A stretch of 48,519 bases of DNA from Nemertoderma westbladi (lineage: Eukaryota; Animalia; Xenacoelomorpha): assembly GCA_032718475.1 (NCBI GenBank), contig JAUCBJ010008923.1, forward strand, positions 1 to 48,519, in the 5' to 3' direction. Made by a program: the position numbers and the translations under genes. This document shows, in pieces, positions 6,561 through 31,470 of the stretch; position 1 is the stretch's first letter; each line of letters opens with the position of its first letter. Below the pieces are notes generated by a model, which had not been told where the DNA came from, did no database searches, and saw only the letters and a list, made by a program, of their open reading frames with translations.

Positions 6561-6740
6561 GTAAGACTTTGTTCGACGCCCTTGCCCGACGTAAGACCTA
6601 TAGATCAGGGTAAGCGTGATGCCGTCCTGGGACGCCGCAAAATTTAGGATCAAATAATTATATTCCAGGCAGAAACCCCCCCCCCCCCCCCCTTTTCTTG
6701 TCAGCCCTGCAAATCCCTGGGTTACCTGTGTACCTCACAG
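6561..6740 (+). other. Predicted small spliceosomal intron inside the LTR
   Basis: Donor AAG|GTAAGA at 6561 (alternatives at 6591 and 6610), poly-C/pyrimidine tract 6676-6700, acceptor TACCTCACAG|G at 6740; donor and acceptor conserved in all three LTRs. Confidence 0.5.
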
Positions 6741-8049: not shown

Positions 8050-8059
8050 GTGAGGTATA
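8050..8059 (+). promoter_or_regulatory. Non-tRNA primer-binding site candidate GTGAGGTATA
   Basis: Directly follows the LTR-terminal CA; lacks TGG; reverse complement of LTR-internal TATACCTCAC (24240-24249; 6729-6738 with one G.U pair). Confidence 0.6.
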
Positions 8060-8898: not shown

Positions 8899-11800
8899 AT
8901 GAGTGACACACCACATTCGACGCGATACCCCCCTATCGACTATGACTCGTGCGACCCGGACAGATTGACAGTAGACGAACCGAGAAGGAGAACCCGAGAT
9001 TCCACCGATGTCACACCGTGTGCGTCGCCGGTACCCCGAACGGAAATACCGGAAGCCGCAGTGCGTGGCCACGGCAGAATCGAAGATTTCCTTACCGTCC
9101 CGCAGACTAGATCGTGGGAACCGGACATGGTAAGTTCGAATGGAAGCCAGGAGAACGTTATTAGAAGTATAGGAGGACACATGGCCCAGATTACTCAAAA
9201 CCTCGGAGAAGGTTTTTGCATTTTACGCGAGTTAACCACCGCGATGTTGAGATACGAGTTCTATACCTTACAGGTGAGGATAGAAAGTACGGTACATGCT
9301 TCCGTAGATGAACTTAAAGGTTTACACGAACTTGCAGAGTTGCGTGGCGACAACTTTACTCAGGTAAAGATAATAGATAAGTTAGTAAGTGCAAGAGAAA
9401 GTATTGTTCAGTTTAAGTCAGTAATAAGATTGGCTCAACAGGAGCAGTTTGACCAAATGCTAGGTGAGTCAGTTTCAGACGCGTTGTTACAACCCGAAGA
9501 GGAAGAAGAACTATACTGCCTGGACGGGAGGTTAGGGACGCTCACCAATTTTCTTCGTAGATGCGGCATACCGATCGAAGAACCGGAAGTCGAACCGCGA
9601 GGGACGACGGAAGTTCTCACTACGGAAGGCTTGCGAGCCTACCATATTCCACCCATGGATAGATCGTTCGTTAGCATGCGGAGTGACGCTGGCGACGTTA
9701 GTAGAACAGCATCTGTTATTACTCGACAACAACAGGAAGTTGCACGCCGACAACAAGTTGCCGAGGAAGAAGCGCAATGACAGATGGCACAGATCGCTAT
9801 CGAGGGAGAGAGACAACGTAGAGAAGACGAAGCAAGAATTGCGCAACTCAAAGCGCAAGCCGAATTTGAGGCTTCGGAGATGCGTAGATTGGAGGAAGAC
9901 TTAGCGCGAGAAGCAGCCGCGGCAGCAGCAACCGACGAGTTAGCACGACGGGTAGCAACTGACGAGTTAACACGAGTTGCAGCAGCTGACGAGTTAGCAC
10001 GGCAGAAGGCGGCCTCTGACGCACATGCTCAGTTGGAGGCACGGCAATTAAAATCATGTTTAGCCATACAGGAAGCAGAACTAGCGGCACAACAACAAGT
10101 AGCGGATCGACGCGAAAGGGAGATGCAGCTACAGTTCGAATTTAATTGTAGATCGCGTGAGGCAGCGAACGCGCAAGAGGACCTCAAACTCGACGCGAGA
10201 GATAGATCTATAAGATCCCGAGCCGGACATGACTTGTCTGCTCTGAATCGTTTCGAAGCTCGATATCGCGGAATTCAGAAGCGTATCGAGGAAGGAAGTG
10301 TGGGAGCGATAGATAGAGGAGAGGAGTTCGTCGAGGATTACTGTAAACGTTTTCCCCAAGTTATTCCTATGCTTAAACCCACGACTCCGATAAAACCGGT
10401 CTTTGTCACGAAACCTAAGGAAATAACGCCCGTGCGCTCGACGCAAGGTAACAGGTTTGTTGTGACAGAAATACCGCAACCTAGGGCAACTTCATCGCCA
10501 ATTTTAGCAGGTAACATAACTAGTCCACCTACAGTAAGTTGTAGTCTACTTGTAGGAAGGGAGGAACCTGCATTTATGTCAATTAAAAAGCAAAGTAAGC
10601 AGTTAAACCTGTGACGTGCTGTGCGAACCCAGTTATTTATAGACCGACTACGAAACCCGATTACTTTACTCAACCTTTGACACAATGTTAGACGCGACCT
10701 ACGACTTCGTGGAAGGCTTGCGAGCCTACCGAACAACGGAGGAGGACGGATGTGGGTAGTACCCACAGGATCGAACCATGTTTAACGAGACCTACGACTT
10801 TGTGGAAGGCTTGTGAGCCTACCGAACGACGGAGAACCGTAGATCCCAGAACGCAACGAATGCGACCAAGAATAATACACCGTACGCGAACCCGCCAACC
10901 ACCTTATCCGGACGACAGCGACTCATCTAGTGACTCGGAGTCGACAGAACGGGAAGTATTCCATACTGGAGCGGCAGCAGCGGCGACGGATTGCAAATGA
11001 GAGGAACGATCGACGAACCAATTCGTCAACAACCCACCACGAGAAACACCCATTCGGAAACCCACGTTGCGACCAGCGGAAACGATCCGCACCAAACAGT
11101 TCACCGAGATGACGGACCGACTAGCTCAACTCGAAGAACTACTTGAAGCGCAACCGTCGGACCGATCACGAACCAGCATGGAGTTGGAACAACCTAGACA
11201 ACATCAACCACCAAGGAGAGAACAGGAGACTAGACAGACTCCGACCCATCGAGAAGAAGATCCCGTTAATAATTCCTACCGACGAACAACGTGCGGAAGG
11301 GAACGACTAGACGACGCTACCGAACAGGGACGCGGACAGTTGGATTTGGTTAGCAAGATTGCGAAATTCGCGGCTAGACTCGGATTACCGGCACAGCAAC
11401 TGCCGAAGTTCTCTGGCAACGCGAAACACTGGCGTACACTGGTAGACTACATCGAGCCCCAGATCGCTAAGTGTGCTTTCACCTCGATGGAGAAGTTTAA
11501 TTACTTGCTCCAAGTCCTGTCTGGTGAGCCAAAACGATTAGCGGAAACCTTTATCGGTGTTCCAGATGCCTTTGAGTTGGCGTACGACCGTTTGTATTCG
11601 ATTTACGGCGGTGACGTGGCCATGGCTAAATCCATTATAGAAGACCTCTGCAGAGGAGGCAATATTTCGAAACCGATCGACCTTTTACGACTCGCGGACG
11701 AAATAAAGAACGCTATAGGGACTTTACGGTCCATAGGACAACTCGAATACGCTAACGCACCGACAGTTCTCATTAGGATAATCGGTCGACTTCACCATCG

Positions 11801-12341
11801 ACTCCGACGAGAATGGCGACGCATCGAGTACCGGCGTGAAGAAGCCGGCGGGCTTTTGAAACTCACCGACGTCTACCAACTGATTTCACGGGAGGCCGTG
11901 ATTGAGACTCGATCGAACTATACCGAACACCATATCGCGGCAGAAGGGATAGCTATTTCTGCACCGACTCGGACCAAACCATTTCTGACGAACGCAAAAG
12001 CCGTTACCTACGCCACCCCTACTGAGACTTCTAAAGTTCTGACGCCTATCGGCACCACACAGCCACAACAACAGTTGCCAGCGGACTTTGTGGGATGCTT
12101 GTACTGTAAGCAGAACGGCAGAAACTATAGCGGACATAAACTTTGTGGGTGTTGTGCTTTTAAGGAGTTAGGAATCGAAGAGCAGAGACTCCAGATTCGA
12201 TCGTTAGATTCCTGCTGGAGATGTATGAAGCCAGGACACGTCCGGAAGGATTGCCCGAGCGACGATACATGTCCTCAGTATGGACGTAACCACGACGCGT
12301 TACTCCACACAACGAGTCATACTCCGACCAAACGCTTTTGA
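8899..12341 (+). pseudogene. gag: BEL/Pao Gag region (coiled-coil N-terminus, DUF1759-like core, three Cys/His knuckles), disrupted
   Basis: LPKFSGNAKHW...EKFNYLLQVLSGEP...AYDRLYSIYG; CLYC..H..C, CWRCMKPGHVRKDC, CPQYGRNHDALLH; in-frame stops at 9778 and 10612 and a frameshift before 11067. Confidence 0.92.
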
Positions 12342-15300
12342 CGAGAGTATCCAGATAAAGCGGCTAGATGCGACGCGCTTTACAAGGAGCGTGCGCCGCG
12401 CGAGATTCATACTTTCTACGTGGATTGTATGGATCAATCGGGATCATCGGACGAGGACGAGGAGGAAGACGACACATTTTATGTGCATGCGGGTGAGGAA
12501 CAGCCATCGATAACGCTCCTCACACAGAACCAATTGAAAGGGTTTAGCGTGATTTCTATAAAGATTACCGGAACCCGAGGGAGCAAGCGTATATACGCTA
12601 TCTTAGACTCTGCGTCATCGCATAGTTATGTTGACGAACAAGTAGCCGACGTAGTTACGGACATGAGTCAAGGTAAGACTGCTCAGTATACTGTAAGCAG
12701 CATGCATGGTAAGAGAGTGATTCCTGTGACTAGAGTAAAACTAACCTTAGACACTCTTCTTTCCAAAGCGGAACACAGCAAGGACGAGCACTCATTACTT
12801 CCGGTAATAAATTTGACCTTTGCAGCTACGAAGGACTTTAGTAACTTGCTTGGCCCTGTGCCAGAGCAATCACCGGAAGATCGTAAGTATTTCCGACACC
12901 TTGGAATACCGGAATGTCCTGTCAATTATCGTTCAATTGCGATGTTAATTGGGACAGACCAGTTTAACTTACATCAGGTATGGGAGACACGCCCATCTGT
13001 TATTACAGCGGGCAACCCCTAAGCATGTAGAACTCCCATAGGTTGGTATACTAGAGCACCAATACGTTCACTAAAGGTAAGTGACCAGGAGGACGACGTT
13101 TTGAGTACGTGTAGTTTATTGACTAACACGATTGATAATTCTCCTTCACACTCCTGTGGTCCAATTGTACAGACGGCATTATGACAGACTTGCGTCGCTA
13201 ACGCAGACACCACCGATACTGACGTAACTGATCTGGACACGACCACACGGACCTCTATCTTACAACTACTTGCAGTAAACCAGGTTGTATTGACTACTGA
13301 AGACCAAAGGGTTGTTGCTGTGGATGACTCGATGCACGAGGGTTTTGGAAGGCTTGCGAGCCTACCGTAAAATCCGAAGGTCATTGACCCCACCCATCAG
13401 GCTTCGACACCGGTCGTTGATATTGGAAGGCTTGCGAGCCTACCGACAGATCAAGAGGTTGTCAAACCGCCGCACGACGATTCGACGCCGACTAGTGACA
13501 CTGGAAGGCTTGCGAGCCTACCAGACATATTGACACTAGCCACCGCAGTGGACGAAGACGTGGACGAGGACCATGGCGCAGTGCAAGCAGCGCTTGACTG
13601 ACTGCTGACTGAACGGACCATCAATGGTTGGACCGCTATGTCAGGACAGGAAAAACGGTCATTAAATATTATGAGAGATACCATTCACCAGACCGCGAAT
13701 GGCCACTACGAGGTTGGCATGTTGTGGCGCAATGGACAACCTAAGCTAGTTAACAATTACCCGCTTGCTTTGAGGCGACTCAAATCAATAAGGCAGCGAT
13801 TGTTGCGAGACGAGACGGCCCATATGCAATACAATGCACAACTTCAGACGTATCTCCAAAAGGGATACGCCATTAGGATGTTAAATCCCGAGGTAACCAC
13901 AGATTAGACATATTACCTGCCACATCATTTTGTTCGACACCCGGACAAACCTGGCAAGGTGCGTGTAGTCAACGACTGTGCCACGCTTTACCAAGGAATG
14001 TCTATGAACAGCGAACTGATGGACGGGCCGAATATTAATAACTACCTCATGGGAGTCCTAATGCGTTTTAGACAACGCAAAGTGGCTTTCACCTGTGACG
14101 TAGAGGCCATGTTTCACCAGGTTAAGGCTTTGGAGCGGGACAGGGACAGCTTGAGGTTTCTTTGGTATCTGGACGGAAATTTAGAACTTCCGCCAGAAAC
14201 TTACCAAATGCAGGTAAGAGTTTTCGGAGCCAGGGACAGCCCCAACTGCACCATGTACGCCTTAAAGCAGACCGCATTAGACAGACAAGACCAATTTGAC
14301 CCAGAAGTAGTTCGGACTGTGGAACGAGATTTCTACATGGATGATGGCCTCAAGAGTTGTGACGCCTTGGAGCGCGCTACAACTGTAGCCCACCAACTCC
14401 AGGATTGTCTCGCTGAGGGCGGATTTCACCTGACGAAGTTTGCTTCTAACGAACCCGAACTGGGGAACTCATTTGACCCGATGGATCGTAGTGGAGGTGA
14501 CCTAGACTTAGACCTAGAACCTCTACCGACGACCAAAGTATTAGGACTTAGTTGGGACCCTAACACCGACAATTTTAGGGTACGTGTAAGGTCCAACGAC
14601 CAGATTAGACATCTCACTAAGAGGACTTGCTTATCGACCATGAGTCGATTGTATGACCCATTGTGTTTCATTAGTCCAGTGATCCTACATGCTAGGATCA
14701 TACTCTGCAGCATTTGGCAAGCCGGTCTGGAATGGGACGATCCCATCCCAGAAAAGTTAGCTGAGCAATGGAAGGACTGAGAAGCCCAACTGACGTTCCT
14801 ACAAGACTATACCATACCAAGGGTATACTTTCCTTTGCAGACCACCTTTCCTGCCGATTTAGAGCTTCACAGCTTTAGTGACGCTAGCAAGGATGGATTG
14901 GGGGTTACATTATACCTTAGACGACAAGTGACATCGGACAGCTACGATGTATCTCTCGTTACTTCTAGGGCTAGAACAATGCCGTTGAAGTATATGACTG
15001 TACCTCGTGGAGAACTGCAAGCCGGGACGATATCCACCGATATTGTCAGTCTAGTTCAACGCGAGCTGTAGGCTAACTTGAAGGTCACATATTGGACGGA
15101 TGCGACGTTGGTACTTTGGTACATAAACAACGAAGCGTTTGAGTTCAAGACTTTCGTAGCCAACAGATGGGCTGAAATCTTGCTCAAACAAGATTGGCGT
15201 CACTGTCCAGGGAAGCTGAACCCAGCTGACATCGCGTCACGGGGAATACAACCGCTTGACTTTTGTAAACCGGACAATAAATCCTTTTGGTTTAGAGGAT

Positions 15301-17755
15301 CCGATTTCCTACAGCGACCATCAGACAAAGGCCACTGTTATTCGACGTGACAACCAATACCATACCAGAGGGTGCCGAGATAAAAATCGACAAGGTTGTC
15401 AAATCAAAAGCGAAAGCCAACGCCAAGGTCAAGAGGAAACAAGGACGGACGAAATCTGATGACCTGGACGCTAGACCTGACATTACGCCAGACGTCTCAC
15501 CAGAATCTCGACCAGACGCTTGTACGAATCTTTCACCGGATGTTCCGCGGGAGATTTCACCAGACGTTTCTCCTGATTGTTCACCAGATTACTCGCCAGA
15601 TTCACCAGAAGCGACACCAGATTGTTCTCCGGATTGTTTGCCAGATTGTTTTATGGAACTCTCGACAGATTGTCTACTGGACGTCTCACCAGACTTTCCA
15701 CCAGACATCTCGACAGACTGTCCACCAGATTTTAGACCAGACTTTAGACCAGACTTTCTGACAGAAATTACGCTAGACACCTTTTGGGACCGACGACAGG
15801 ACATTTCGCCGGATGTTCCGCGCTATGTCTCACTAGACGTCTCACCAGACTGTTCACCAGACGTTTCACCAGACTGTCTACTAGACACTCCATTAGAAGA
15901 CCCATTGGAGCGGACTTTTAGAAATTTACCAAATTTGACTTCTTTGGACGACAAAGGTGTGGCCACAGCGATCACACTTCGCTCAAAGAAAGTACTTGAC
16001 TTACCACATACAGGTAAATGTTTGACTAAGGTTAGGAAAATTACAGGCTCACAGGAACACACTAACACTGTAGAGTTGACACCGTTACTGCCAGTCGACT
16101 CACTAGGAGCAGACGGTAAAGGTAAGACCGTGGAGATTGACATACTTGGGGACTCAGACAACCCTACCGGAAGGCCCGTGGGCCTACCAAGTCCAGACAA
16201 GTATCCACACTACGACTATACCTTACCTGATGACGTCACTAACACTTACGTTGACCGGATAGTAAACCTAACTAGATCATGGACTGACGCGTGCCGCAAG
16301 TTAGCATGGCTCAAACGTTTGAGACAATATGCCAGAGGCAAACGCGACTTTCCTAGAAGACTTACCTTAGAGGAAGTTGACCATTGTGAAGTTGATATCA
16401 TTCTCCATTATCAATTGCGATATTTCGCACGAGAATTCACAGCGATCAAACAAGGTAAACAGATCAAGTCTTCACCGATTTTGAGTTGGAGTCCGATTAT
16501 TTATCGGGGCTTACTTTGTCACAAGTCCAGACTCCAGAACATCAACTTTGCACTTGACTTCAGGTATCCTATCATCATACCGCAACACCATGAGTTACAG
16601 CGCGCTATGATACTGGACGCACATGTACAACTCAAACACGTGGGTAGACATCACTGTTTGTCACATTTACGATCGAGGTTTGTACTGATTAGGCCTAGCA
16701 AGGCACTGAGTTTGGTAACACGGAACTGTATGATTTGTAAGAAGGTGCATGCGAGGATAGGACACCAAGAAATGAGTGAACTACCACTAGCAAGATTACA
16801 GGCATTTAGACCCCCTTTCACTGAGACAGGGATAGACTGTTTTGGACCTATAATCGCGAAACGCGGAAGGGTACAGGTAAAACGTTGGGGATTGATCTTC
16901 ACTTGCATGGCCTGCAGAGCTGTCCATATAGAGCGTGTGACAGATTTGACCACCAATGCCTTTATCCTAGCCTTACGGCAATTTATCGCTAGACGTGGAT
17001 TGGTCAAATCCATTTATTGCGACCAAGGGACAAACTTTGTGGGTGCACGGAACGAAATAACCAGAGCTTTAAAGAAATTGGACCAAAACCAGATTTCCGA
17101 GGAACTACGTCCTCACCGTATTGTTTGTAATTTTAATACTCCAGACAGTCCGTGGAGAGGCGGAGTTTGGGAAAGGCTGATTGGCTCAATCAAGACAGCC
17201 ATGGCAAAAGTAATCCCAACGCAACACATATTGACAGACGACCAACTGTCGACGTTACTAATAGAAATCGAAGCGACTTTGAACACTAGACCAATCGCTT
17301 TGAACCCAGACAATAACGACGTACAGTTTGCCTTGACACCAGCGCACCTGCTTATGCAGGCGCCAATGACATTGTTGCCCATTTCGGTACCCGTTAATAG
17401 CGACGGATACGGCAACAAGGCTTGGAAAATCACTCAACTATTAGCAAATAAATTCTGGGAAATATGGCAGAAATATTATTTGCCCTCTATTTCATCCAGA
17501 ACAAATTGGTATCATAATACCCGATGTTTGAGACGTGGTGACCACGTTTTATTGGCTGAAGACAATCTGAAAAGACGGTTTTGGCTGACCGGAGTCATTT
17601 TGACCACACACCCTACATCTGGTGTAATAAGGACAGTTACTGTACGGACTATCGACGGACGTACCGTAGATAGGCCTGTACAACGTCTCGTACTCCTAGA
17701 GGAGACTAGAAACGAGACAGGAGACTACAAATCTCCACCCAATATTAGTAAATAA
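12342..17755 (+). pseudogene. pol: BEL/Pao Pol region: aspartic protease, RT, RNase H, integrase, DUF5641-like C-terminus, disrupted
   Basis: AILDSAS protease; YLPHH, DVEAMFHQV, FYMDD (RT); FSDAS, PRGEL, WTDA, NPADIASRG (RNase H); HHCC, GIDCFGP, DQGT, GVWE (integrase); FWEIWQKYYL. Same frame as late Gag until a frameshift near 15340; several stops. Confidence 0.95.
15475..15885 (+). repeat. In-frame 12-bp minisatellite encoding (S/R)PD(C/V/F) repeats between RNase H and integrase
   Basis: Degenerate TCACCAGACTGT units; protein PDVSPDCSPDYSPD... Confidence 0.85.
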
Positions 17756-18477
17756 GATGTGGTACCCTTGATGGCCACCACATAGACTTACCATATTTTA
17801 GTCATTTTGTATTACTGTATGTGCATTTGTAATCCTCTTCACTGTAGATAGAGACAGCGGTGGAATTCCATGTCTTTATATGTGAACATGGAGGGTAGTA
17901 CCCTTATGTATCACATAGGAGCGGGATTGTGTGTGTACAGTAGGAATGGAATTCTACTTAGAACCCACAATTGAGACAATTTTTCAAAAATTATTAGACA
18001 AATCCATTCAGTTGGATTTAAATTTAAGAAAAATGATTCTCCAGTGAATACGAATTCTAGAATACAGCTAGATAAAAATTAAAATTGGGGAGGACAAGAG
18101 CGGATGGAAGGCTTGCAAGCCTACCGATAAATTTTTTTTGGAAAACAAAATCGGCCTTGTTCTACGTAGTCGTGTCTACTATTATTTAGACCAAATTAAT
18201 TCTCGACTGCATTATTTTCTTAGGAATGTAGTTTGGGAAATTAAAAGGTGAGTATTTTAGACTCGCGGCTAGTTTACCCGGAATTCGTTTTTTATCGGCA
18301 CAATTTTTTGGATTAGGAGCCAGTGCGAAATCACACAAACCCGAAGTCATTAGGCAAATGGGTTGGGGTTTTAGAGCAAAGTTGAGCCAAAAGCTGACAA
18401 ACTCTAAGTCACCTCACATCTAACCTCTATTTTGTGCTTCATCTAGTAGCAACGTAACGATATGTAACCATATATAT

Positions 18478-19167
18478 GTGTATACGATGGCGGAGAAGAT
18501 GAATAAGGAGTTACGTCAAGAGTTTACGCAGGAACAAGAGGCGCCATTCAATCGTTATGGAGCTAAAAACTTTAGTGTGTTTGGAGTGGAGAGTATGGCC
18601 AGAAGTACGGCCAAGCTCGCTAAATCCAAGGCGGACCCGAATGTTACGCGACAGCGGTTGGACGTGTATAACAAAAGAACGGAGGAGATACGCGCAGAGT
18701 TTAATGCGTTATATCCCTACGATGCATTATGCGATGCTAGTGACATTTGCGAGGATCCAGACACCGAGATGCGCCGATTGTATCATACGCTGCAATACTT
18801 GACGGTAGATGAACCCTTACCTGCAGCCAGGGATGAATTCGAAGGAATGTATCTTTATAGACACGCTCGTGGAGTGGATCCAGAGACAAAGGACGCGTTT
18901 TCCATATACATACTGTTTTACAAATGTGGAGCATGTATGCGTGAGCAAGATAACGCGATTCCTATGAGATTGAACTCGGAGAACCCCGAGCCAATATTAG
19001 CGCGATGCTCATACCACCAAAGTCTGCGTTACCAAGAAGGCGGATACCCTTTGACGAATCCGTACCATTTGTTTAAAATGAGTGGACCGAACGCGGGTGA
19101 GATCGTTATTAACGAACCCAGATTAGTCGAAACCAGACGTCTACAGCATGGTAGTGGACGAGTCTAA
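18478..19167 (+). CDS. BEL 3' accessory ORF A, unknown function (CxxC...CxxH possible Zn site)
   Basis: 229-aa open frame downstream of integrase; YKCGAC...RCSYH; overlaps the next ORF. Confidence 0.6.
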   Translation: MYTMAEKMNKELRQEFTQEQEAPFNRYGAKNFSVFGVESMARSTAKLAKSKADPNVTRQRLDVYNKRTEEIRAEFNALYPYDALCDASDICEDPDTEMRRLYHTLQYLTVDEPLPAARDEFEGMYLYRHARGVDPETKDAFSIYILFYKCGACMREQDNAIPMRLNSENPEPILARCSYHQSLRYQEGGYPLTNPYHLFKMSGPNAGEIVINEPRLVETRRLQHGSGRV

Positions 19168-20710
19168 TAAGTCGACACGAGAGAAACGGGAAGCTCTGAG
19201 CCTCTACAGGGCGTACAAGGCGTACGAGAAAGGCGAGATCGAGGAGTTTGGCGGAAGGCTCGCGAGCCTACCATTCTATTGGATATCCCACGATCAAACC
19301 AAACCTAAGGAGATGACACCCGAGCTCCTCGATAGTATCACCTTTGCTCAGCGTTTGTTGCAGAGACTACAGATACCTCATGTCGAGATGACGCGAGAAC
19401 CTCAGCCCCATTCTGCTGGAGCGATAGTACCGGTTGCGAGACCAACTAACTTTCCTATTAGTATACCGACCCGGAAGGAGACAACTTACGAGATTCCTAT
19501 AGTTGAACACCCGGAGATCATTTCGAACCTGGATTTCCTCCCATCGGTTACCTTCGGTGATGTGTTAGAGTCAGCCGAGTTACGTAAAACAATAGTTCAA
19601 AAAATCGTACGCAACGTGCCTCCACACATTACGGACTTTAAGGAAGTGGATCGAGTGGGGACGGATATCGCACCTTGCATCTTACGAGGATATCTGACTA
19701 GAACGATTCGATTATGGATCGGAGTTGGAACGTTTGAGACCGACACCAATATCGCGACCAATTGGACTGGTAAACCTATTAGTTTTGATGATGAAAAGTC
19801 AATTGGGAGAATTTGGAACCCTACCGACGATTTACTCGACGATTGGGATGTGACTAGCCGATCTCTAAAGGAGAATTGTTATATGTTTTACGACAATGAA
19901 GGAGGAAGCCATGAGCAAAGCCTCACTTCGAAAACTATACAGATTAGAGCACCAGACGGCGTGTTACATGTCTTCAGCCGACATAGGAGTGATAGAAAGA
20001 TGCCTATGCCGGAAGGAACGACGCAAAGACACGCGATGATAAAACGGATAGTTAAATCCATGGACCTGGCTTGTAGCATAGAAGCTAGGATGTTGCCAAA
20101 GGCCGTGCGAGACGTTGTGTTAGACAAGAGCATCGTCAAGATCGGATCCGGTGTACGGGATGACCTTATTAGCGATTTTGCGGGAATTGTCACGGAAGAG
20201 GATCAATTGCCTACGCCATACGTGGATACTAGACCATTGTTGCTTTGAGCTATTGAGCAAGGATATTTTAGGGAGTATAACACGCTAAAAACTGGGATGG
20301 GTTATATCTCATATCTAATGTTTAGTTGGGATTATAAGGAGAGTAAGAGGAGCAAGTACACGGACGTATACGGAGAGGGAGATACCCCCGGCGTAAACGA
20401 GTTCGAGTCACAGTTGAAGTGGCGAGGTTGCGTGTATTGGGCGATTAATTCACCTCCACGAATAATCTTGCAATACTATTTAGCGATAGAATCTTCGGTC
20501 AACGTTTGTTTCATCGCCGACGTAGTATCTAGAACCCTAAAGCGACATCCGTTATGTCTCGGTGAAGAACACACCTTTTACGATGGAGGAAGGACGCATA
20601 CTGATGTATTCCGACGATTTCTCCAACCCTTTTATAACACCGATGCGCACTGCAAAGTTTTCACGCGAGCGTTTTCAGGGACGTCTATCTCACTCACGCG
20701 GGAATCCTAG
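19148..20710 (+). pseudogene. BEL 3' accessory ORF B: WRN/EXD-like DEDDy 3'-5' exonuclease (one in-frame TGA at 20246)
   Basis: ExoI MFYDNEG...TIQI; ExoII LPKAVRDVVLDKSIVKIGSGVRDD; YVDTRPL...KTGMGYIS; ExoIII-like W...QYYLAIE. ORFs 19148 and 20297 are in the same frame. Confidence 0.75.
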
Positions 20711-20724
20711 TCGACAGACCATCG

Positions 20725-21441
20725 ATGTTAACGTTAGTACCGTATGACGGGGAACGCCACGCGGAATTCAAAGGCCCGGAAGGATCCTGGAAGGCTCGCG
20801 AGCCTACCGCCCATCACTACGATGTGGATCCGGCCGAGTTTGCGATGATAGACGAACCGTTGCAGCAACTCATAGAGATAGAGGAGAACCTTCCGAGGAA
20901 GACGCGAACTGAGATACGCGAGTTGGAGAAAAGCGATGCCATGGTTTGTGTACAACCTACGGAGACGAACATACCGACTGACCCGGATGATGAGAATTAT
21001 CACGTGGACGGTAGCGCTCGCCCCATCGGAGATCTCATCTATGAGCGAGTTTGGTACCCTGCCAACACTATTTGTGGCAGATGCGGGGCAACTGGCCACC
21101 ACGCAAAGAAATGCGGAGCGAAGCACATATCTCTACTGGACTTGGTATGTAACTGGTGCGGGGATCAACGTTCACACACTTTCTACACTTGCTGGCGTTT
21201 TGTGGCGCAGTGCACGTATTGTAATATTAAGGGCCATAGGGCATCCGAATGTCAACTTAAAGACGTCCTCTATGAGCACATGTCAGTTAAAATCGTTCGA
21301 CAGCTATTGGGAGGATCTAGCAGACGAGCATGTATCTACGCAGCGACGCCGTTTCCCTATGAGAGCACATTTGGGATTTTGGGCCGTAAACCCTCTCATA
21401 ATGTCGAAGGAAGGATACGTATCGGCTATGCCTCAGTATGA
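20725..21441 (+). CDS. BEL 3' accessory ORF C: triple CCHC zinc-knuckle protein
   Basis: CGRCGATGHHAKKC, CNWCGDQRSHTFYTC, CTYCNIKGHRASEC at 21073-21252. Confidence 0.8.
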   Translation: MLTLVPYDGERHAEFKGPEGSWKAREPTAHHYDVDPAEFAMIDEPLQQLIEIEENLPRKTRTEIRELEKSDAMVCVQPTETNIPTDPDDENYHVDGSARPIGDLIYERVWYPANTICGRCGATGHHAKKCGAKHISLLDLVCNWCGDQRSHTFYTCWRFVAQCTYCNIKGHRASECQLKDVLYEHMSVKIVRQLLGGSSRRACIYAATPFPYESTFGILGRKPSHNVEGRIRIGYASV

Positions 21442-22220
21442 TGAATTGTTGGAGGTGCTGGATATATTGCCTTTGGATAGCGGATTTATGGTTGTGCGGG
21501 ACTACTTTCTACAGGTACACCCCGACAACAAGAATACTTGGAACTTTCAAACTGTTGTGAACAAGATTACCGCCGGGGAATTCGACAAATTGCGAGTTGA
21601 ACAGCGCAATCGAGGAGCCTGGCATTCGATAGCTTGGGCATACCGGAGCGCATTTTATCACAAACGTGTAACCTCGTATATTCTAGACGAGACTGACGTT
21701 TTGTGTGAGACTGGCTTCAAGGCCACACCGTTAGCAGAAAGGACGCGTCACCCACAGGATGATTAGCAATTTCGTATACTCAAAGCCCAACAGGCCGGAC
21801 AAGAGATAAAGAAGGTAGTAAATGTTGCCGAGAGGATGACATCAAAGTCGCAAATCCGGATGACTCGGGGCACAGTTTCCCTTGCCAGAGAACCACGCGG
21901 AGGGACAGGATACGCTTTGCCGGAACCCTTTAGGATTCAAACAACGTCAGAGAGCGAGGTGTCAGCGGACGGAATAGTCCCACCATTTTGACTTCCTCCC
22001 AGCATTGTAGAGACTCGATCCGATGTTAAGTCGACGATTGGAATCGGACGAGGATTTAGAGGATTGAGCGCACGACGGATGTGCGAAACTCCCGTCGTCC
22101 CATTTCCTAGCGTTTTGGAACCACCGACAACTCGACGCCGAAGTCCAAGCCCAGTTCGACCTCGACCACCACCCAATCGCACTAGAGGATGTGGACGAGC
22201 CCGCTCATCGAAGGAATAGA
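21428..22220 (+). pseudogene. BEL 3' accessory ORF D (or frameshifted continuation of C), with Pro/Arg-rich tail
   Basis: MPQYDELLEVLD... frame reads on past stops at 21764 and ~21989 with coding-like composition. Confidence 0.4.
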
Positions 22221-22253
22221 AGCGAGAGGAAGGAAGGCTTGCGAGCCTACCGA

Positions 22254-22352
22254 TTTGGATATTTATATTCGGATATTTTATTTGGATATTATATTGGATA
22301 TTTATATTCGGATATTTTTATTTGGATATTATATTTGGATATTTATATTGGA
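22254..22352. repeat. TTGGATATTTATATT-type tandem repeat in the 3' UTR
   Basis: About seven GGATATT-cored units between two copies of the 20-nt hairpin motif. Confidence 0.8.
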
Positions 22353-22861
22353 CATTACGTTTGGACGTTGGGTTTGGAGGAGCGAGATAGAGAAGGAAGG
22401 CTTGCGAGCCTACCGTTAGCGATTAGTGCTCAGGAGAAGATATCCAGACCAGCAGGACGAACTTTTAAGATCGTCAGGAGGACACTTTAAGACTCATTTA
22501 AAGTTATTAGCGCCTTATGTTTATTTTATATTTGAACTGATTTAATTTGGTGGAAGTTTATTATGTATATTTACAATATAAAGATTTATTGCAAGAGATT
22601 GAAATTATTTGTTTGATTTGTTCTAATTTGTTTGATCTAATTTGTTTAATTTGCTTACCTTGATAACCGAAAGCCCATTTTGTATTTTATGCACTAAAGT
22701 TAATTAGTAAATTTGTATTTTGTATGTACGATGGATTGTATTTACGCCGTACCTGCGTACCTGCAATATTAAGTATGCAATAATTAGATAGTGATTATTT
22801 TATATTTTAGGCCCTACCAGTAGATTTAGAAATATTTGTAAATAGTTCGTATTTCGATTGG

Positions 22862-22896: not shown

Positions 22897-23022
22897 TGAT
22901 GAATTATTTCACTATAAGATAGCATTTGTAGTGTAACTTTAATGTAAAAACTTTCGAAAATCCGACGCATTTTGATTAAGTTACAGTAATGTAATATTGC
23001 CTATTCATATTTGTACACATAA

Positions 23023-23329
23023 AGTAAAGTAAAGTAAAGTAAAGTAAAAGTAAATTTTCTTCGGCCGCTAGGCCAGGGATTATGCACAAAGTCTGACGAC
23101 TTATTTCCAGTGCGGTCCCCCCAGAACTTTACTCCCCAGAGGAAACTCCAGTACTCATTTAGCTACCACTTAAGGATGCAAGGCAGAGATGCGCCCTGGC
23201 TGGTCCCTTTAAAGCATTCGTGCCGAAACGAAAACTGCCCTGGCCCATGTGAGGATCGAACCCACGACCTATGGGAGATGTGAATTCAATGCGACCACTA
23301 CACCAAGGTGGAACCTTAGTTACGCTCCC
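23023..23329 (-). mobile_element. tRNA-derived SINE with (TTTAC)n tail
   Basis: Absent from the other two LTRs; minus strand has A box TGGTGTAGTGG and B box GGTTCGATCC; (AAAGT)n on plus strand at 23021-23054; TAA duplicated at the flanks. Confidence 0.85.
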
Positions 23330-25006
23330 TAAGGCCCCTAGTTATTCTCGTGGCAGAGTGGTCAGATGGTTAAGGCGTTGGTTACATTACAGATAGGTTA
23401 CGTGTTCGAATCCCGGTCGGGAAATTTGTATTTTGGGGCCATTTATTTTCATTTGGTGCAGATTGGTGGACCAATGAGACGCGTACAATGTATCGAACGA
23501 TGAGCCAGGCCAATCATAGGGCATAGAATATCTTATTGCTCAAATGTGAGGCTATGGAAAATTCTGTTAGGATTCCGTGTCCCAGATTAGTGTAAGGGCC
23601 GGTTTGCATTGAACGATGAGCTGGGCCAATCATAGGGCATAGAGCATCTCATTGCTCAAATGTGAAGCTGTGGAAAATTCTGTTTGGTTTCCATGTACGA
23701 TTTTAGTATATAAGGGCTGGTTTGCCTTCGGTTATCACCTTCAACTTCACCTTCACTTCTACTTGTTAACCTAGTACACCTTACTTATATTAGTTTATTT
23801 TGTTTCTTGTTGAAACTTTGGTAAATCTGCTTGATAATCTTTGCTCGAATCTAAACTGTAAATATACTGCAAACTCCTGAACATGTTTACTTTTGGTCCA
23901 ACCTTGGGACAGCCAAACATCGGGAAGATGGCAGCCTAGACAGTTAGGCCGTCAGCAACGCAGAGAAGGGATGTCCACAACATGCTAGCGCCCACATAAG
24001 TTTGACTGCACACCCCCTTCGCCCTTTGAAATACTCCAACTTGCCATGCAGCGCCCGCTTTATGAGGAAGGTAAGACTTTGTTCGACGCCCTTGCCCGAC
24101 GTAAGACCTATAGATCAGGGTAAGCGTGATGCCGTCCTGGGACGCCGCAAAATTTAGGATCAAATAATTATATTCCAGGCAGAAACCCCCCCCCCCCCCC
24201 CCCTTTTCTTGTCAGCCCTGCAAATCCCTGGGTTACCTGTATACCTCACAGGTGCGAGCTATTGCCGTTCGTCAGTACGCAAGTACATATTAGGTACGGA
24301 CAGCATACGTTCCATAATTTAGTGATTTGTTAGTACTGACTGTTTGGTACCGGTTCGCTTTGTGAACATACATTAGTACCCCCCCCCCCCCCCCCCCCCT
24401 CCTACCTGGAGTTAGTTATTTGATCAGGCAAGGAGTATTTCTGCTACCGGCACACCGCTTGGCCTAGGGAGGTTTTATTAATATCCTACCGCGCCTTGCC
24501 ATGTACTGATAGGTATTTGCTGCTAACTACCGCAGCAACAAAGTTCTAGAATCAAATTTGTATACCAGATCAGCTAACGTACGGTAGCAATTAACCCCTA
24601 TTTCTTATCTTACAACCAGAATCTGGTATTTGTGCCGATCACGGGTGTAGTTACTAACACTGTGGTTGCCCGGTTGAGTTGTGGATAGGAAGGAGAGAGC
24701 TTTGACGTCATTTGTAAGTATAAAGTTCTACAAACGCGACTAGTTTATTTTAGTAGCTAGCGCACGGTATTATTTCAGTCAGAAAATCACTAAAACCTAG
24801 TAAAATGATATACACCAAAATTGTTTTATTTGTAACACACCCACACACACACGCCCTAAAACATATTTACCCTTAGAGTTCCTACTAGATAGCGCACTTT
24901 AGATTTTAGGCAGAATTTATCTGTATTCGTAGAATTAGGATCTGATATTTAGTTACGGCAACGGCAAGGGAGTATTTCATTATTTTGTTATTAAACTGTT
25001 GTTTTC

Positions 25007-25879
25007 TACCGTGGCTCATTGCGGCCACATTTGAATTTTTCTTTTTTTTTTTAAAAAAAAAAGTACACCTAATTATTCAGACAAATATTTAGCTGTACTT
25101 TTTTTTTCTTCAAAAAAAAAAAAAATACACCTAATTATTCAGACAAATATTTAGCTGTACTTTTTTTTTCTTCAAAAAAAAAAAAATACACCTAATTATT
25201 CTGACAAATAATTTGGAGTATTTCTTTTTTTCTTTCTAAAAAAAAATACTCCTAATTAATTAATATATGTTATTGGAGGGAATTTTAAACAGGTACCTGT
25301 GGATAGCATGACCGGTACCCGGTACGAACGGTAGGGTACTCTGCTCTGCTGCTACTACTGTACTACTGCTACTACAGTACTACACTTCAGCACTTAGGCA
25401 GCTTAGCCTAAGCACGTCAGAACTGCGAAATGGCGTCAGATTCTGACGATTTTGATACTGTTGGACCTAATCCTAGTAGAAAGAGGAAACTACTCGCTGA
25501 TGTAAGACGTGATTGTTATCTTCAAATAAACAAGCTATATCAAATCTGAAATCTGCCAGGTTGAACAGCCTGATGATGATGCTGATATGCATACCGCTAC
25601 CGGTAGGCCTAACCTTATTGGCATTCCGACGCGACCGACTTCTGCCGGGAATCGATGCCGGGATACTCCAAATTATTTGTCAGAATAATTAGATGTATTT
25701 TTTTTTAGATAAAAAAAAAAGAAATATATACTCCAAATTATTTGTCAGAATAATTAGGTGTATTTTATTTTTTTTGAAGAAAAAAAAAGTACAGCTAAAT
25801 ATTTGTCTGAATAATTAGGTGTACTTTTTTTTTTAGAAAAAAAAGAAAAATTCAAATGTGGCCGCAATCAGCCACGGTA
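25007..25879. mobile_element. MITE / internally deleted DNA transposon with long structured TIRs
   Basis: TACCGTGGCT(C/G)ATTGCGGCCACATTTGAATTTTTC TIRs, mirrored ~59-bp subterminal repeats, duplication GTTTTC (25001-25006, 25880-25885); empty site in the 5' LTR near 7490. Confidence 0.92.
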
Positions 25880-26502
25880 GTTTTCTGCTCAGCAGTATTG
25901 TTGCGTTAGGCACGACCCTTTTAGACTGATTTCGTACAGGGGGATCAGTTATTGTTACATTAGGCACGACCTTTTTTAGGCTGATTCAGATAGGGAGATC
26001 AGTATTGTTACGCTAGGGCTGTAACCCACCTAGCTCGTATATAATATAAACCATATAAATCACACCGCGGCAAGTTACGGTATTTTAGGACTGTCAGCGA
26101 TAGTTAGGATTCGCTGCGCGGGGATTGTTTTCCCGTGAGTTTGGTCTGTTACTGTAAATACTGTTACTGTTACTGCCATACCGGTTAGAGGACAGGTATC
26201 CTTTTGTCTAGTTCGTAGGCATTAGACCCGCTCACGTTCATAGAATAGACACCAGGCTCTGCTCCTCGCCAGTAGTAGTTTTGTGTATTGTATCTGTTTG
26301 TTTAGATATCCTGGACTGGGATTTGTTGTCAGATACTGTACGAGCCCGTTTCATTACTAGAGTCTCATAGTAAGATACATCGTTACTAGGATCTGGTAAG
26401 CGGTATACTACTGGACCCTACGGTTAGAGATATTCTATTGCTTCTTATTAGTAGATTTGTAGGCCGTAGGGTAGTCCCTACCGTAGGGGACACCACAACA
26501 TT

Positions 26503-27028: not shown

Positions 27029-28189
27029 CAGTATCTGGTTGCGTTGAACTATTCAACCTCGTTGATGATGACATTGATGTTGAGTCCTGGTCCACTGATA
27101 AGGCTGCCGACAATAAGAGCAGACAATGGACAATAACACAGTAACAGCCTGGAACCCAGCAAGGTTGCTAAGCTTTTAACGTATTATAAGATACTCATAA
27201 AAAACTGTAAACAGTTTGGAGTCTGGCACCAATTGTTATTGATAGACGAGTCCATGGTTCCTTCAGTTCTTATTTTGCTCGCCACTCATGCAAGATGTTT
27301 ATTCGTGGTAAGCCAATCCAGATTTGGATGTTATGTGGTGAGGATGGCTACCCCTATAACATGGAGATATATACCGGTAAAGATGAATCACGAGCATTGG
27401 GAAGTGCTGTTGTTAACAATATGATAAGTTGGATTTCAAACTTTGCAAATAATCATATTCTTTTTGATAATTTCTTCACATCTTACGACCTCTTGCAGTC
27501 AATGATAGAGAGGGGTATTCATGCCACACAGCCACAGGGACAATCAGAGAAGTGTGGAATGGGAAATGCCCTCTAATCGATTCACGATCACGGGAAATGA
27601 AACGAAAAGATCGCGGTTTATATGACTACAGGTTTGTTTCTAGTGCATAAATAAATCTGAATAATAACTGGCTATCTACCGGTATATGCCTACAGTTGTA
27701 TATAATAATTTATGTAATTATTACCCTACTGCTACCGTATAAATATAATAAATATATATATAGGCCTAACTAATAAATATAGGCCTAATTCTGTAATATG
27801 TATAATAATTGTCTAACAATATGAAAATGAATGCAAAAAATCCGTATACATATACATTAAATAATGTAAGAAATATAAATAAAGTGTATATAATATAGTA
27901 GGCCTAATAAATTAAATATATATATCCTACTGATCCTATCCTAATAATTATGTATAACCAGTAGCAGTTCTATATTCAATTTATTGTAGAAGTGCTGGTA
28001 ACATTGTAATGTGCAAGTGGAATGACAATGCAATAGTCACTGTTGGTAGCAGCTGCGTTGGTGTTACATCCACTGAGAAGGCTAAGAGGCAGGTGAAGAA
28101 GCAGTGTGGAGTTTATGTTGACCAACCGAAGTTGATCAAGGTTTACAACCAGGGAATGGGTGGTGTAGATCTATTTGATCGGTTAGTCT

Positions 28190-31100
28190 ATGATATCGAT
28201 CTGGACCCAAAATGCCTTGAGCGTTTTCTCCTTAAGAAGCTGAATTTAACGGAAGGATTAACAGTCGAGATGCTGAAGACTCGTTACGATACGTATAGTT
28301 CGGTCAAGGTTGAGTTGCTGAGTTCGGAGCCTCAGGTTCTCATGAATCCTGAGATCTGGCCGAGCGGAGCTCTGGTTAAGGAGTTCGTCGGAGGAAACCG
28401 ACGTCGCCCCGCTGCTGTAGATCCTGAAGTTCTCAAGGTCTGAAACTGAAAGTCTCGGTGATAAGCCTATAAGTTGAGTTTTTGAAGGTTTTTTTAGTAT
28501 GGAAGTCACCTCATTCAATTGTAATGGATTGTTTGATAGTAGGAATCGGGGCTACCTTAAACCAACTGTAGTTGATCTATTTGATCGTTATGATATTGTG
28601 TGTCTACAGGAGACTTGGTTTAGCAAACAGGACTTATCTCGATTAAATACTTTGCATCCTGGGCTGCACGGGACTGGGGTTGCAGTTACAGATTACGGTA
28701 GTGGTGTTCATCATGGGAGGAACAAAGGCGGAGTAGCGATTTTTTGGAAATCACAGTACGATAATTACATACAACCTTTATCATTCGATTACGATTGGCT
28801 ATGTGCAATAGAAATCAATATTGATAATCATAAATTTGTTTTCATAAATGTGTATCTGCCATTTGAACACCGCGATAATGAGGCGGATTTTCTGTTTAAG
28901 TTGGGTACAATACATAATCTTATTGATGAATTGGGAACTAGCACGACTTTTATTATAGGAGATTTTAACTCTGATATATCTGATGATAAATCATTGTTTG
29001 GTAAACACCTTATTGAGTTTTGTAGTGACACGGACTTAATTTTGTCGAGTAAACAGTTTATTAACTCAGGATTTACATATGTTGATAGTTACTGGGGCTC
29101 AGTATCGTGGCTTGACCACTGCCTGTGCACAGCTGATGCTCACAGTGCTATTACACGCCTAAACATTTTGTATGATGATTCACGTGGTGTGGATCATATT
29201 CCGTTTGACCTTGGTTTAAATGTATCTGCGGTGCCTTCTGTAAATTTTTTTAACAGTGATGACTCTGTATGCAGCACCGGACGTAAATTTAATTGGAGTA
29301 GAGCTAATAAAAAAGATATAGATAATTTTTGTGAGCAAACGGCGCTTAAATTAGATAAGCTCTCCTCGTGTACTGGCGATTATATTCTATGTAAAGACAT
29401 TAACTGTACAGATAGTGATCATATATCTAATTTAGAAAATTTTTATGAATCGGTTATTTCTGCCTTACATGAATCCGAACACACTAATGGTTCTAGAACA
29501 AATAGTAAAAATATCATTCCTGGGTGGAATGATCTGATTAGGCAACATTATGATGCATCTCGCGATACATTCTCTCTGTGGCGTGAGGCGGGACGACCCC
29601 GATCTGGCCCAATTTTCGATCTGAAAAGGCGAGCGGACTTGCGTTTTAAATACGCTGTCCGTGCAGCCAAAAATAACGAAAACAAAATTCGTTGCGAAAT
29701 GTTAGCTAAAAAACTGTCTGGTAAAAATACTCGTGACTTTTGGAAAGAAATTAAAAAAATTAACAATTGTAATACTCCATTACCAACTTCGATTGATGGT
29801 ACTACAGGTACTGCAGAGATTGCTGAGATGTGGCGTAAACATTATTATGATCTTTTTAATTGTTTAAAGCGCACAACCAATAATTTACACTGTTCCGATA
29901 ATATTAATTACGAAGATATGTGTGTTAGTGCTGAGGAGGTTCGTAGTAATATTGAGTCTTTATCAAATAATAAATCTTGTGGTTTAGACGGCATATTTGC
30001 AGAACATTTAAAGTACAGTAGCAGTATACTATATGAAATTTTAGCAACTTTATTTACGAGTTTCTTTGTTCATGGTTATCTTCCTAATAACTTAATATCT
30101 GTTATATTGGTGCCGATAATTAAAGATAAAACAGCTAAAATTAACAGTAAAGATAATTACAGACCGATAGCGTTAGCAAGCATCATTTCAAAGGTAATGG
30201 AAAAAATAATACTGCATAGGATAGAACCTAATCTAAAAACAACGCATAATCAATTTGGTTTTAAAAGTAAATTAGGTACCGATATGTGCATATTTTCCCT
30301 GAAAGAAATGATATACAAATACAGACAGTTACAATCTACTATGTTTGTCACTTTCTTGGACGCCTCTAAGGCATTTGATAGAATAAACCATGATGTGCTT
30401 TTTGGTACTCTAATTAAACGGGGGGTTCCCCAATATATAGTGCGATTAATAATTTTCTGGTATGTTCATCAAACATTCTGTGTTAGGTGGGGCCCAAATG
30501 TTTCAGCTTCTTTCACCGTTTCTAACGGAGTAAGACAGGGTGGAATACTGAGCCCTTTCCTATTTAACATTTATATGAATATATTATCTACTAAATTAAA
30601 TAGCTGCAATATAGGGTGTCTTATGTATCATACATTATGCAATAATATTTTGTATGCTGATGATTTAGTTTTATTGTCTCCGTCTGTAAAAGGTATGCAA
30701 AAACTGCTGAAATTGTGCTCTGAGTTTGGAGACGAATATGATGTAATTTTCAACGCAACAAAAAGTGCTACTTTATATATTCGATCAAAATCTCAAATAT
30801 CGTGGAATTTTCCTTCATTTAAAATAGGCAATATTACTCTTCCAATCAAAAAAGAATATAAATATTTAGGACATTATATTACCAATACACTATCTGATGA
30901 TAGAGATATTTTACGACAACGTAGGAAACTATATATGCAGGCAAATAGTTTGAAACGCAGATTTTTTATGTGTTCAAATGATATTAAGCAACGTTTATTT
31001 CAATCCTATTGTACGCCGATGTATACAGCTCACTTATGGTGCAATTATACTAAAACTGTATATAATAAATTTACAACATCATATAATAATACATTTCGAA

Positions 31101-31470
31101 TTCTTATGGGATATCCCAAAAATTGTAGTGCCTCAGAAATGTTTTTATTTAATCGTTTGCCTAGTTGTGCTGCTGTGATTCGTAATCTCATTTATAATTT
31201 CATTGTTAGGATCGATAAATCATTTAATACTATTATCTCCAGCTGTTCTACATCTGATTGTATATATTTTTCCCCATTGCGACGGTTTTGGATGACTGAA
31301 TTACATATTAATTTTAAATTGCCGAAGCTGTTATATATTAATTCCGTAAATATTAATTCTGGTAAATAACGCTTATATTTATTGGTTGTTTGGTGATGGT
31401 GGTGTAGTAATGTTATGGTGCAAAGTGGACTTCGTGTTCAGAATATACACAATATATATATATATACAAT
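28190..31470 (+). mobile_element. 5'-truncated non-LTR retrotransposon (APE-RT LINE, RTE-X-like) in the piggyBac intron
   Basis: ORF1 C-terminal remnant (..MNPEIWPSGALVKEF, stop at 28443) followed by ORF2 and an AT-rich simple-repeat tail; boundaries and clade approximate. Confidence 0.85.
28499..31369 (+). CDS. LINE ORF2: AP endonuclease + reverse transcriptase (956 aa, uninterrupted)
   Basis: SFNCNG, CLQETW, IIGDFN, WLDH, DHIP; NYRPIAL, QFGF, FLDASKAFD, GVRQGGILSP, YADD, YKYLG. Confidence 0.96.
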   Translation: MEVTSFNCNGLFDSRNRGYLKPTVVDLFDRYDIVCLQETWFSKQDLSRLNTLHPGLHGTGVAVTDYGSGVHHGRNKGGVAIFWKSQYDNYIQPLSFDYDWLCAIEINIDNHKFVFINVYLPFEHRDNEADFLFKLGTIHNLIDELGTSTTFIIGDFNSDISDDKSLFGKHLIEFCSDTDLILSSKQFINSGFTYVDSYWGSVSWLDHCLCTADAHSAITRLNILYDDSRGVDHIPFDLGLNVSAVPSVNFFNSDDSVCSTGRKFNWSRANKKDIDNFCEQTALKLDKLSSCTGDYILCKDINCTDSDHISNLENFYESVISALHESEHTNGSRTNSKNIIPGWNDLIRQHYDASRDTFSLWREAGRPRSGPIFDLKRRADLRFKYAVRAAKNNENKIRCEMLAKKLSGKNTRDFWKEIKKINNCNTPLPTSIDGTTGTAEIAEMWRKHYYDLFNCLKRTTNNLHCSDNINYEDMCVSAEEVRSNIESLSNNKSCGLDGIFAEHLKYSSSILYEILATLFTSFFVHGYLPNNLISVILVPIIKDKTAKINSKDNYRPIALASIISKVMEKIILHRIEPNLKTTHNQFGFKSKLGTDMCIFSLKEMIYKYRQLQSTMFVTFLDASKAFDRINHDVLFGTLIKRGVPQYIVRLIIFWYVHQTFCVRWGPNVSASFTVSNGVRQGGILSPFLFNIYMNILSTKLNSCNIGCLMYHTLCNNILYADDLVLLSPSVKGMQKLLKLCSEFGDEYDVIFNATKSATLYIRSKSQISWNFPSFKIGNITLPIKKEYKYLGHYITNTLSDDRDILRQRRKLYMQANSLKRRFFMCSNDIKQRLFQSYCTPMYTAHLWCNYTKTVYNKFTTSYNNTFRILMGYPKNCSASEMFLFNRLPSCAAVIRNLIYNFIVRIDKSFNTIISSCSTSDCIYFSPLRRFWMTELHINFKLPKLLYINSVNINSGK

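Follow-up and report, generated by a model that had tools for sequence, protein, structure and literature searches.

A long terminal repeat (LTR) retrotransposon of the BEL/Pao type in the genome of the xenacoelomorph Nemertoderma westbladi carries, in the position of an env gene, a third open reading frame (ORF3) whose middle domain, as judged from its sequence, likely has the RNase D/WRN/EXD (DEDDy-type) fold. The element was found in a stretch of 48,519 nucleotides (contig JAUCBJ010008923.1 of assembly GCA_032718475.1, positions 1 to 48,519, forward strand), which is called the window below and to which all coordinates refer. ORF3 is family-wide and under purifying selection, with the pattern of a selected gene. 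The LTR of the same element contains a 10-mer followed by AG that is probably its minus-strand primer, and the two observations are joined here in a tentative proposal, one that is possible rather than probable: a diverged DEDDy-type 3'-5' exonuclease with zinc knuckles, encoded in the env position, would trim two unpaired bases off the LTR-derived primer.

DEDDy-like domain of ORF3

An earlier annotation of the window, made from its letters alone and referred to here as the first-pass annotation, had proposed a WRN/EXD-like DEDDy exonuclease between the integrase and the 3' LTR of a BEL element. Both the location and the letters were borne out. The ORF3 region sits between the end of the integrase (17755) and the start of the 3' LTR (22897), and the motifs are found where they had been placed: ExoI, FYDNEG, with D249 at 19892 and E251 at 19898; the ExoII block, LP..V..V.LD.SIVKIGSGVRDD, with the candidate catalytic D339 at 20162; the VD/GM segments, present as YVDT and TGMG; and the ExoIII-like YLAIE, with Y444 at 20477 and E448 at 20489. 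Five catalytic residues are expected in the DEDDy family (PMC6648332).

Profiles were built from bacterial members of PF01612 only (28 RNase D, 36 NrnC-like and 50 WRN-like sequences), and 966 six-frame tiles of the window were scanned with them. The tile holding the ExoII block of ORF3 ranked first with three of the four profiles, namely RNase D (E 0.087), pooled (E 0.76) and WRN-like (E 2.4). An ordered score over eight blocks amounted to 14.6, a value reached by none of 2,000 shuffles (maximum 10.1); the best of 327 BEL polyprotein tiles scored 6.9, and the runner-up among 372 window tiles 3.9. The ExoII block taken together with the DT motif scored 31.9, whereas the highest of 5,000 shuffles reached 17.4 (0/5,000). 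When the query was added to the family alignment with MAFFT, all six invariant residues (D and E of ExoI, Q of strand 2, K and D of ExoII and the DT aspartate) were recovered, whereas none of 77 shuffles yielded all six; four of the 77 recovered the D, E, D trio. The domain shares with RNase D, NrnC, the WRN exonuclease, EXD2 and Mut-7 (PF01612) the ExoII strand-helix with its DT motif and perhaps the ExoI DxE, behind which a Q strand lies at the distance usual in the family. It differs from them by its low identity (14–21%), an insertion of ~30 residues before ExoII and an ExoIII that is either non-canonical or displaced. The targeted profile test favours the DEDDy fold claimed in the first-pass annotation, although no unbiased library match was obtained. 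The narrower label of WRN/EXD-like gained no clear support: by hidden Markov model the RNase D profile fits better than the WRN-like one (8.2 versus 4.0 bits), but the ExoII block alone scored higher with the WRN-like one (16.3 versus 12.8), all with bacterial profiles only.

A number of results weigh against a nuclease in this place. The window-level E-values given above are modest, hhalign probabilities do not exceed 48%, and the NrnC profile did not match the ORF3 tile in the scan of 966 tiles. The block borders were set after the query had been seen, and the block search puts ExoI and ExoIII at sites other than FYDNEG and YLAIE. ExoI with the two strands that follow it was reached by 1,651 of 5,000 shuffles and is not significant alone, and ExoIII does not rise above chance (3,423 of 5,000). 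There are two candidates for ExoIII. The first, Y444-x3-E448, is the YLAIE of the first-pass annotation, of which the letters stand and the assignment does not exceed chance; it is helical, has a tryptophan 13 residues upstream (12 in the family) and requires the replacement of D by E. The second, Y408-x3-D412, has the canonical letters and is preferred by MAFFT, but requires a deletion of 10 residues and likewise stays within chance. A single-sequence AlphaFold2 model had a predicted local distance difference test (pLDDT) value of 32 and gave no usable fold match. In a family-guided model, pLDDT was 62 overall, 70–87 over the strands and ExoII and below 50 in the YLAIE helix; its matches to EXD2, WRN, NrnC and RNase D (Z up to 9.0, root mean square deviation ~4 Å over ~150 residues) were discounted as circular, the guiding alignment having contained 36 DEDDy proteins.

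The nuclease-like protein also lies below all library thresholds, with no real match by sequence in Pfam, NCBIfam or PDB. A word-indexed protein search returned 0 of 5,163 and 0 of 107 candidates, and no relative was found in phages (tblastn) or in viral and metagenome contigs. The sole HMMER match among 1.84 billion representatives (E 9e-4) was rejected as a chance alignment of 40 residues to a repeat protein. Ten distant metagenome BEL loci (36–51% integrase identity) contained neither an ORF3 match nor a DEDDy ORF, a result of little weight as most of these stretches end soon after the integrase. A novel protein in which the ExoII-like block is a local look-alike, with no DEDDy nuclease at all, would agree with these empty searches, with the low confidence of the single-sequence model and with outer motifs that are not significant alone. 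Such a look-alike is nevertheless quite unlikely, given that the score of ExoII with DT lies far beyond the 5,000 shuffles and both real negative tile sets and that the invariant D, E, Q, K, D and D were recovered in order.

ORF3 across the family

ORF3 of the present copy is broken into four pieces (Table 1), which likely represent one family ORF of ~1,090 aa, expressed from a spliced messenger RNA (mRNA) as env would be. A single frame of ~1,090 codons is suggested because contigs of two runs diverge from this copy near 19130 and because one contig over 20452–20857 and another over 20926–21405 have length differences by which the following piece comes into frame (each difference seen in a single contig, both contigs from the same run). 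The ORF at 19148–20710 described in the first-pass annotation is present, but it is probably the middle of this longer ORF, and the in-frame stop that splits it between ExoII and ExoIII had gone unmentioned. An acceptor-like signal 40 nt upstream of the ATG at 18487, composed of CTAAC, a pyrimidine tract and AG, likely fits an env-style spliced mRNA.

The family comparison drew on contigs from all four public sequencing runs, which represent at most three samples. These contigs cover 18355–22365 evenly, many of them at 80–95% identity and including pieces below 90%. At the stop codon, 20246–20248, the depth that differs from this copy makes up all or nearly all of the depth in each run (28, 24, 22 and 1 contigs; 32 contigs in a closer look), and the stop is therefore damage private to this copy. 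The 12 best-supported of 51 indels all lie outside ORFs, and no indel with a share of at least 10% occurs in 19871–20500.

Variants were analysed over the 630 sites of 19871–20500 in one run. With the stop codon set aside, 28 of the 29 variant places were classified, 18 of them as polymorphic (share <95%). Sixteen of these 18 fall on the third codon position (p 1.7e-6), and transitions were synonymous in 15 of 16 cases where 33% would be expected (p ~5e-7). The ten near-fixed differences (six non-synonymous, three synonymous, one unresolved) are probably this copy's own decay. It should be held against these figures that the variant sites are not independent, being related by shared ancestry and taken from one run, so that the p-values overstate independence. 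The first-pass annotation had named absence from other copies and neutral evolution as outcomes that would speak against it; the coverage in all four runs and the excess of synonymous transitions are the opposite of both.

No transmembrane (TM) segment is evident in ORF3, the maxima of the 19-residue Kyte-Doolittle mean being 1.48, 0.51, 1.02 and 1.16 in the four pieces. Pfam revealed no env family in ORF3, nor were the signal or fusion peptide and TM anchor of an env-like product found there, in agreement with the non-env ORF lacking an obvious TM that had been described earlier. An Atlas search with piece 1 gave no usable lead (best 0.76).

Candidate self-primer in the LTR

No TGG is found within 20 nt after either LTR end, where an 18-nt primer site complementary to the 3' end of a transfer RNA (tRNA) would be expected; the window contains no tRNA genes, and 5000–27000 no credible Rfam match. 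The ten nucleotides directly after the 5' LTR, 8050–8059, are the exact complement of 24240–24249 in the 3' LTR and pair, with one G:U, with 6729–6738 in the 5' LTR. This corresponds to the kind of site defined in PMC6317226, namely an LTR complement of at least 10 nt that begins 0–5 nt after the LTR end. By comparison, 40 of 14,700 internal 10-mers have an exact LTR complement, and two of these stand before AG.

A second, diverged member of the family begins near the end of the window. In this member 46533–46542 is exactly complementary to the aligned 10-mer, 45262–45271, which is followed by the same AG, and the complement starts at the base after the inferred LTR end (CA, 46532). Five of the ten positions differ between the two members, and all five differences are compensated between primer and site. 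The self-primer ending in AG of which the first-pass annotation had spoken is thus backed by a real 10-nt complement and by co-variation at half of its positions. The cognate duplexes have energies of -21.7 and -17.4 kcal/mol and the crossed ones of -5.6 and -14.2 kcal/mol. The 10-mer with its AG in the LTR is probably the minus-strand primer.

The AG after the 10-mer looks like a splice acceptor, and GTAAG donors are conserved 130–180 nt upstream of it. On the reading of this AG as an acceptor or as a donor alike, the spliceosome could leave an RNA that ends at AG. A primer formed at an exon-exon joint was also searched for, with no joint of at least 9 nt in copy 1 and joints in the second member only with non-consensus donors. 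Four points count against a spliced and trimmed primer: where the LTR of the second member ends had to be deduced, its 3' LTR lying beyond the window; the energies of one crossed and one cognate duplex differ by only 3 kcal/mol; the AG may serve as a splice donor or have no part in splicing; and the pairing of primer and site extends past the AG, so that RNase H could cut the primer out in the manner of Tf1 without trimming.

Self-priming has been described for Tf1/sushi, Tcn1 and TAR elements (PMC6317226), and the primer of Tf1 is the first 11 nt of its transcript, freed by RNase H (PMC7175516). As in Tf1/sushi, the primer site that immediately follows the 5' LTR matches 10–11 nt within the LTR by complementarity, and not a tRNA (PMC7175516, PMC6317226). 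In contrast to Tf1/sushi, the present 10-mer lies ~500 nt past the likely start site (the only upstream TATA match is ~530 nt away) and 1.3 kb before the primer site, and it is closed by an AG that resembles a splice site; moreover, the element belongs to BEL and not to Ty3/gypsy or copia.

As a separate observation, the 3' LTR of the full element shows at 26412–26445, some 70 nt short of its end, a decayed sequence resembling the junction of LTR end and primer site of the second member (46520–46550), as if the LTR end had been shifted by a short duplication, with primer and site then changing together.

Possible roles of the ORF3 product

In the proposed mechanism, splicing at the LTR AG would leave an RNA with an ...AG-OH end. 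In an AG-ended primer, A would stand opposite A as a mismatch, and the untrimmed primer would cover the terminal CA of the LTR; both obstacles arise because integration requires CA at the LTR end and splicing requires AG, which are established retroviral and spliceosomal rules. If the particle contained a 3' exonuclease, these two bases would be taken off, and reverse transcriptase (RT) would then start exactly at the LTR end. Removal of two bases, a job of the RNase D-type kind, would solve the mismatch and uncover the CA. What counts against this mechanism is that the tie between enzyme and primer rests on co-occurrence in one family. The wider notion of a retroelement that is primed by a splicing-generated AG 3' end in its own LTR, and that needs an exonuclease of its own since the AG of the spliceosome and the CA of the integrase cannot pair, is doubtful.

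From its sequence we lean only slightly towards a catalytically active domain. The DEDDy fold could alternatively serve as an RNA-binding module, weak or dead as in EXD1, Egalitarian and Maelstrom, which together with the knuckles binds hairpins to transport, protect or package a long RNA. A 20-nt hairpin does have 11 copies in the internal region and a further one in the second member (48156), with 0 matches in 100 shuffles. It consists of a 5-bp stem with a 4-nt loop, an A-A mismatch and two more pairs, lies partly within ORFs and partly between them, in each of the three frames, and is likely a packaging or protein-binding signal; being a near-palindrome, it may also be a DNA site. Besides these hairpins, none of which would be expected by chance, the RNA-binding function would account for the three CCHC knuckles after the domain and for the non-canonical or misplaced ExoIII, and dead DEDD derivatives are noted in PMC5408684. 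It is rather unlikely in view of D249, E251 and D339, which match invariant catalytic columns and show no variant at a share of 10% (a weak point, just 29 of 630 sites being variable), and of the knuckles of Gag, which could read the hairpins instead.

An active exonuclease could also act against silencing, by degrading or over-trimming the 3' ends of PIWI-interacting RNAs (piRNAs) or small interfering RNAs (siRNAs) and so permitting a high copy number. Related folds such as Mut-7/Nibbler and EXD1 work in small-RNA pathways (PMC5408684), and the family is abundant, with 5,749 contig pieces matched in sequencing run X1. No direct evidence points to such a function, which would moreover leave the AG-ended primer site unexplained. 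The 3' ends of piRNAs are usually 2'-O-methylated and resist enzymes of this type, a further argument against it, and we regard an anti-silencing role as unlikely.

Still another role would be that of an active DNA exonuclease that proofreads complementary DNA (cDNA) or processes its ends, allowing faithful copying of a 17-kb RNA. The element is about twice as large as the size range given for Belpaoviridae by the International Committee on Taxonomy of Viruses (ICTV; PMC8742986), and WRN-type domains act on DNA; the best-fitting profile is that of an RNase, the domain is not fused to RT, and larger Gypsy elements are described without such an enzyme in the available part of PMC6431247, all of which makes processing of cDNA very improbable. 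Trimming of the primer by the ORF3 enzyme is the reading retained here, at the tentative level stated at the outset.

Structure and affiliation of the element

The element occupies 5697–26497 (20.8 kb, decayed) and is flanked on both sides by a target duplication of 5 bp, ACATT (5692–5696 and 26498–26502). Its two LTRs differ by 48 mismatches in 2,347 aligned columns, and its gag-pol contains several stops and frameshifts. PF03564, PF05380 and PF18701 follow one another in the order of a Pao-type gag, RT/RNase H and integrase, that is, in the order protease-RT-RNase H-integrase of the family. The RT relatives are Pao-type proteins with at most 49% identity among the listed matches; 119 of the 120 listed contain PF05380 or PF03564 and one contains neither, and those named come from cnidarians, molluscs, nemerteans, an echinoderm, a hemichordate, a tunicate, a trematode and a fish. 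The element is, on this sequence evidence, an animal BEL/Pao (Belpaoviridae) element; the first-pass annotation had called it a BEL retrotransposon.

The profile of the Belpaoviridae gives a size of 4.2–10 kb, LTRs of 0.2–1.2 kb, an 18-nt primer site for tRNA-Arg or tRNA-Gly and an env-like third gene (PMC8742986). The present element agrees with the family in its zinc-knuckle gag, the order of its enzymes, the Pao-specific Pfam families, the TG...CA LTRs with a short target duplication and the presence of a third gene after pol. It differs from the profile in its internal region of 14.8 kb, its LTRs of 2.35 kb, the missing tRNA-type site and a third gene that is not env. The lack of a tRNA primer site departs from the ICTV profile, but the BEL/Pao assignment stands because it is based on the enzymes.

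Table 1. Features of the element and of the second family member in the window.
Feature	Position	Strand	Remarks
5' LTR	5697–8049	+	2,353 bp; TG...CA termini
Candidate TATA box	6197–6203	+	consensus match; start site inferred ~25–30 nt downstream
Two splice-donor-like GTAAG (6561, 6610)	6561–6615	+	identical in all three LTR copies; consensus match
Candidate self-primer	6729–6740	+	10-mer complementary to primer site with one G:U, then splice-site-like AG
Candidate primer-binding site	8050–8059	+	directly after terminal CA of LTR
gag-pol	8917–17755	+	DUF1759, zinc knuckles, RT, Peptidase_A17, integrase, DUF5641
20-nt hairpin, 11 copies	9624–22414	+	at 9624, 10711, 10804, 13347, 13425, 13503, 18106, 19253, 20789, 22232, 22395
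Likely acceptor of spliced ORF3 mRNA (predicted)	18420–18446	+	branch-point-like CTAAC, pyrimidine tract, AG; consensus match
ORF3 piece 1	18487–19167	+	226 aa; CxxC...CxxH motif at 18925; no known family matched
ORF3 piece 2	19148–20710	+	DEDDy-like domain ~19870–20540; in-frame stop 20246–20248
ORF3 piece 3	20638–21441	+	three CCHC-type knuckles at 21073, 21148, 21211
ORF3 tail (likely)	20882–21766 (open frame)	+	last part ~21380–21766; no known family matched
3' LTR	22897–26497	+	two later insertions inside: ~23020–23329 and terminal-inverted-repeat element ~25006–25880
Second, diverged family member (start)	44252–48519	+	LTR ~86% identical; gag cut at window end

Several further observations were made in the element. 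The gag has an unusually long front (8917–10990), rich in alanine and glutamate and coiled-coil-like, which is retained in the second member; comparison of the two members there showed 26 synonymous and 21 non-synonymous codons with a single difference. In pol, an in-frame array of 12-bp repeats (S-P-D-x type) is located at 15463–15909, between RNase H and integrase. The terminal-inverted-repeat element of ~0.9 kb and the unrelated insertion of 310 bp (23020–23329) are present in the 3' LTR only.

Outside the element, the window starts with a 41-bp tandem repeat (1–419). A non-LTR retrotransposon has an uninterrupted endonuclease-RT ORF of 963 aa at 28478–31369, with the remnant of a DDE_Tnp_1_7 transposase upstream of it (27958–28443). 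An AT-rich block at 36155–44263 contains ORFs of 358, 838, 504 and 186 aa, of which those of 838 and 504 aa bear, on inspection, some resemblance to a protein-primed DNA polymerase B of a Polinton-type element, split in two; Pfam gave no match at E 0.1 that would support this.

Relation to known exonuclease ORFs and significance

The first-pass annotation had held that extra ORFs of BEL elements are usually env-like and had overlooked published cases of DEDDy ORF3s in LTR retrotransposons: they occur in the Juno and Vesta LTR retrotransposons and in Athena/Terminon elements of bdelloid rotifers (PMC5408684), as is restated in PMC5718144, PMC6431247 and PMC6338049. In both the rotifer elements and the present one, an RNase D-like DEDDy ORF (here a likely one) without TM follows pol, one catalytic D is replaced by E (here putatively), and processing of 3' ends has been proposed. 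The host element here is BEL/Pao, whereas Juno and Vesta are of the Gypsy type; the replaced residue would here be that of ExoIII (D-E-D-E), whereas theirs is DEED; and the domain is here probably part of a polyprotein of ~1,090 aa that also has zinc knuckles. The present gene is under purifying selection, whereas the test in PMC5408684, made on env- and GDSL-type ORF3s, found variation to be near-neutral.

Full-text literature searches and the available part of PMC3118150 disclosed no BEL element with an exonuclease, although earlier annotation is possible in subscription journals, Repbase or supplements. The same sources, with most subscription journals and supplements outside their scope, disclosed no LTR element primed by a product of splicing.

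Exonuclease ORF3s have thus been known since 2017 from Gypsy-type elements of rotifers, where their function is not shown. The case described here extends exonuclease-like cargo to BEL/Pao, together with purifying selection. For this family the ICTV profile gives tRNA priming only, to which a priming signal of another kind is now added. The case also provides a concrete candidate substrate in the form of an RNA duplex of 10 bp, backed by co-variation, whose 3' end of two bases is defined, and the role of exonuclease ORF3s for retroelements therefore becomes testable. If true, splice-and-trim priming would be a step of primer maturation that is undescribed for LTR elements in the literature searched.

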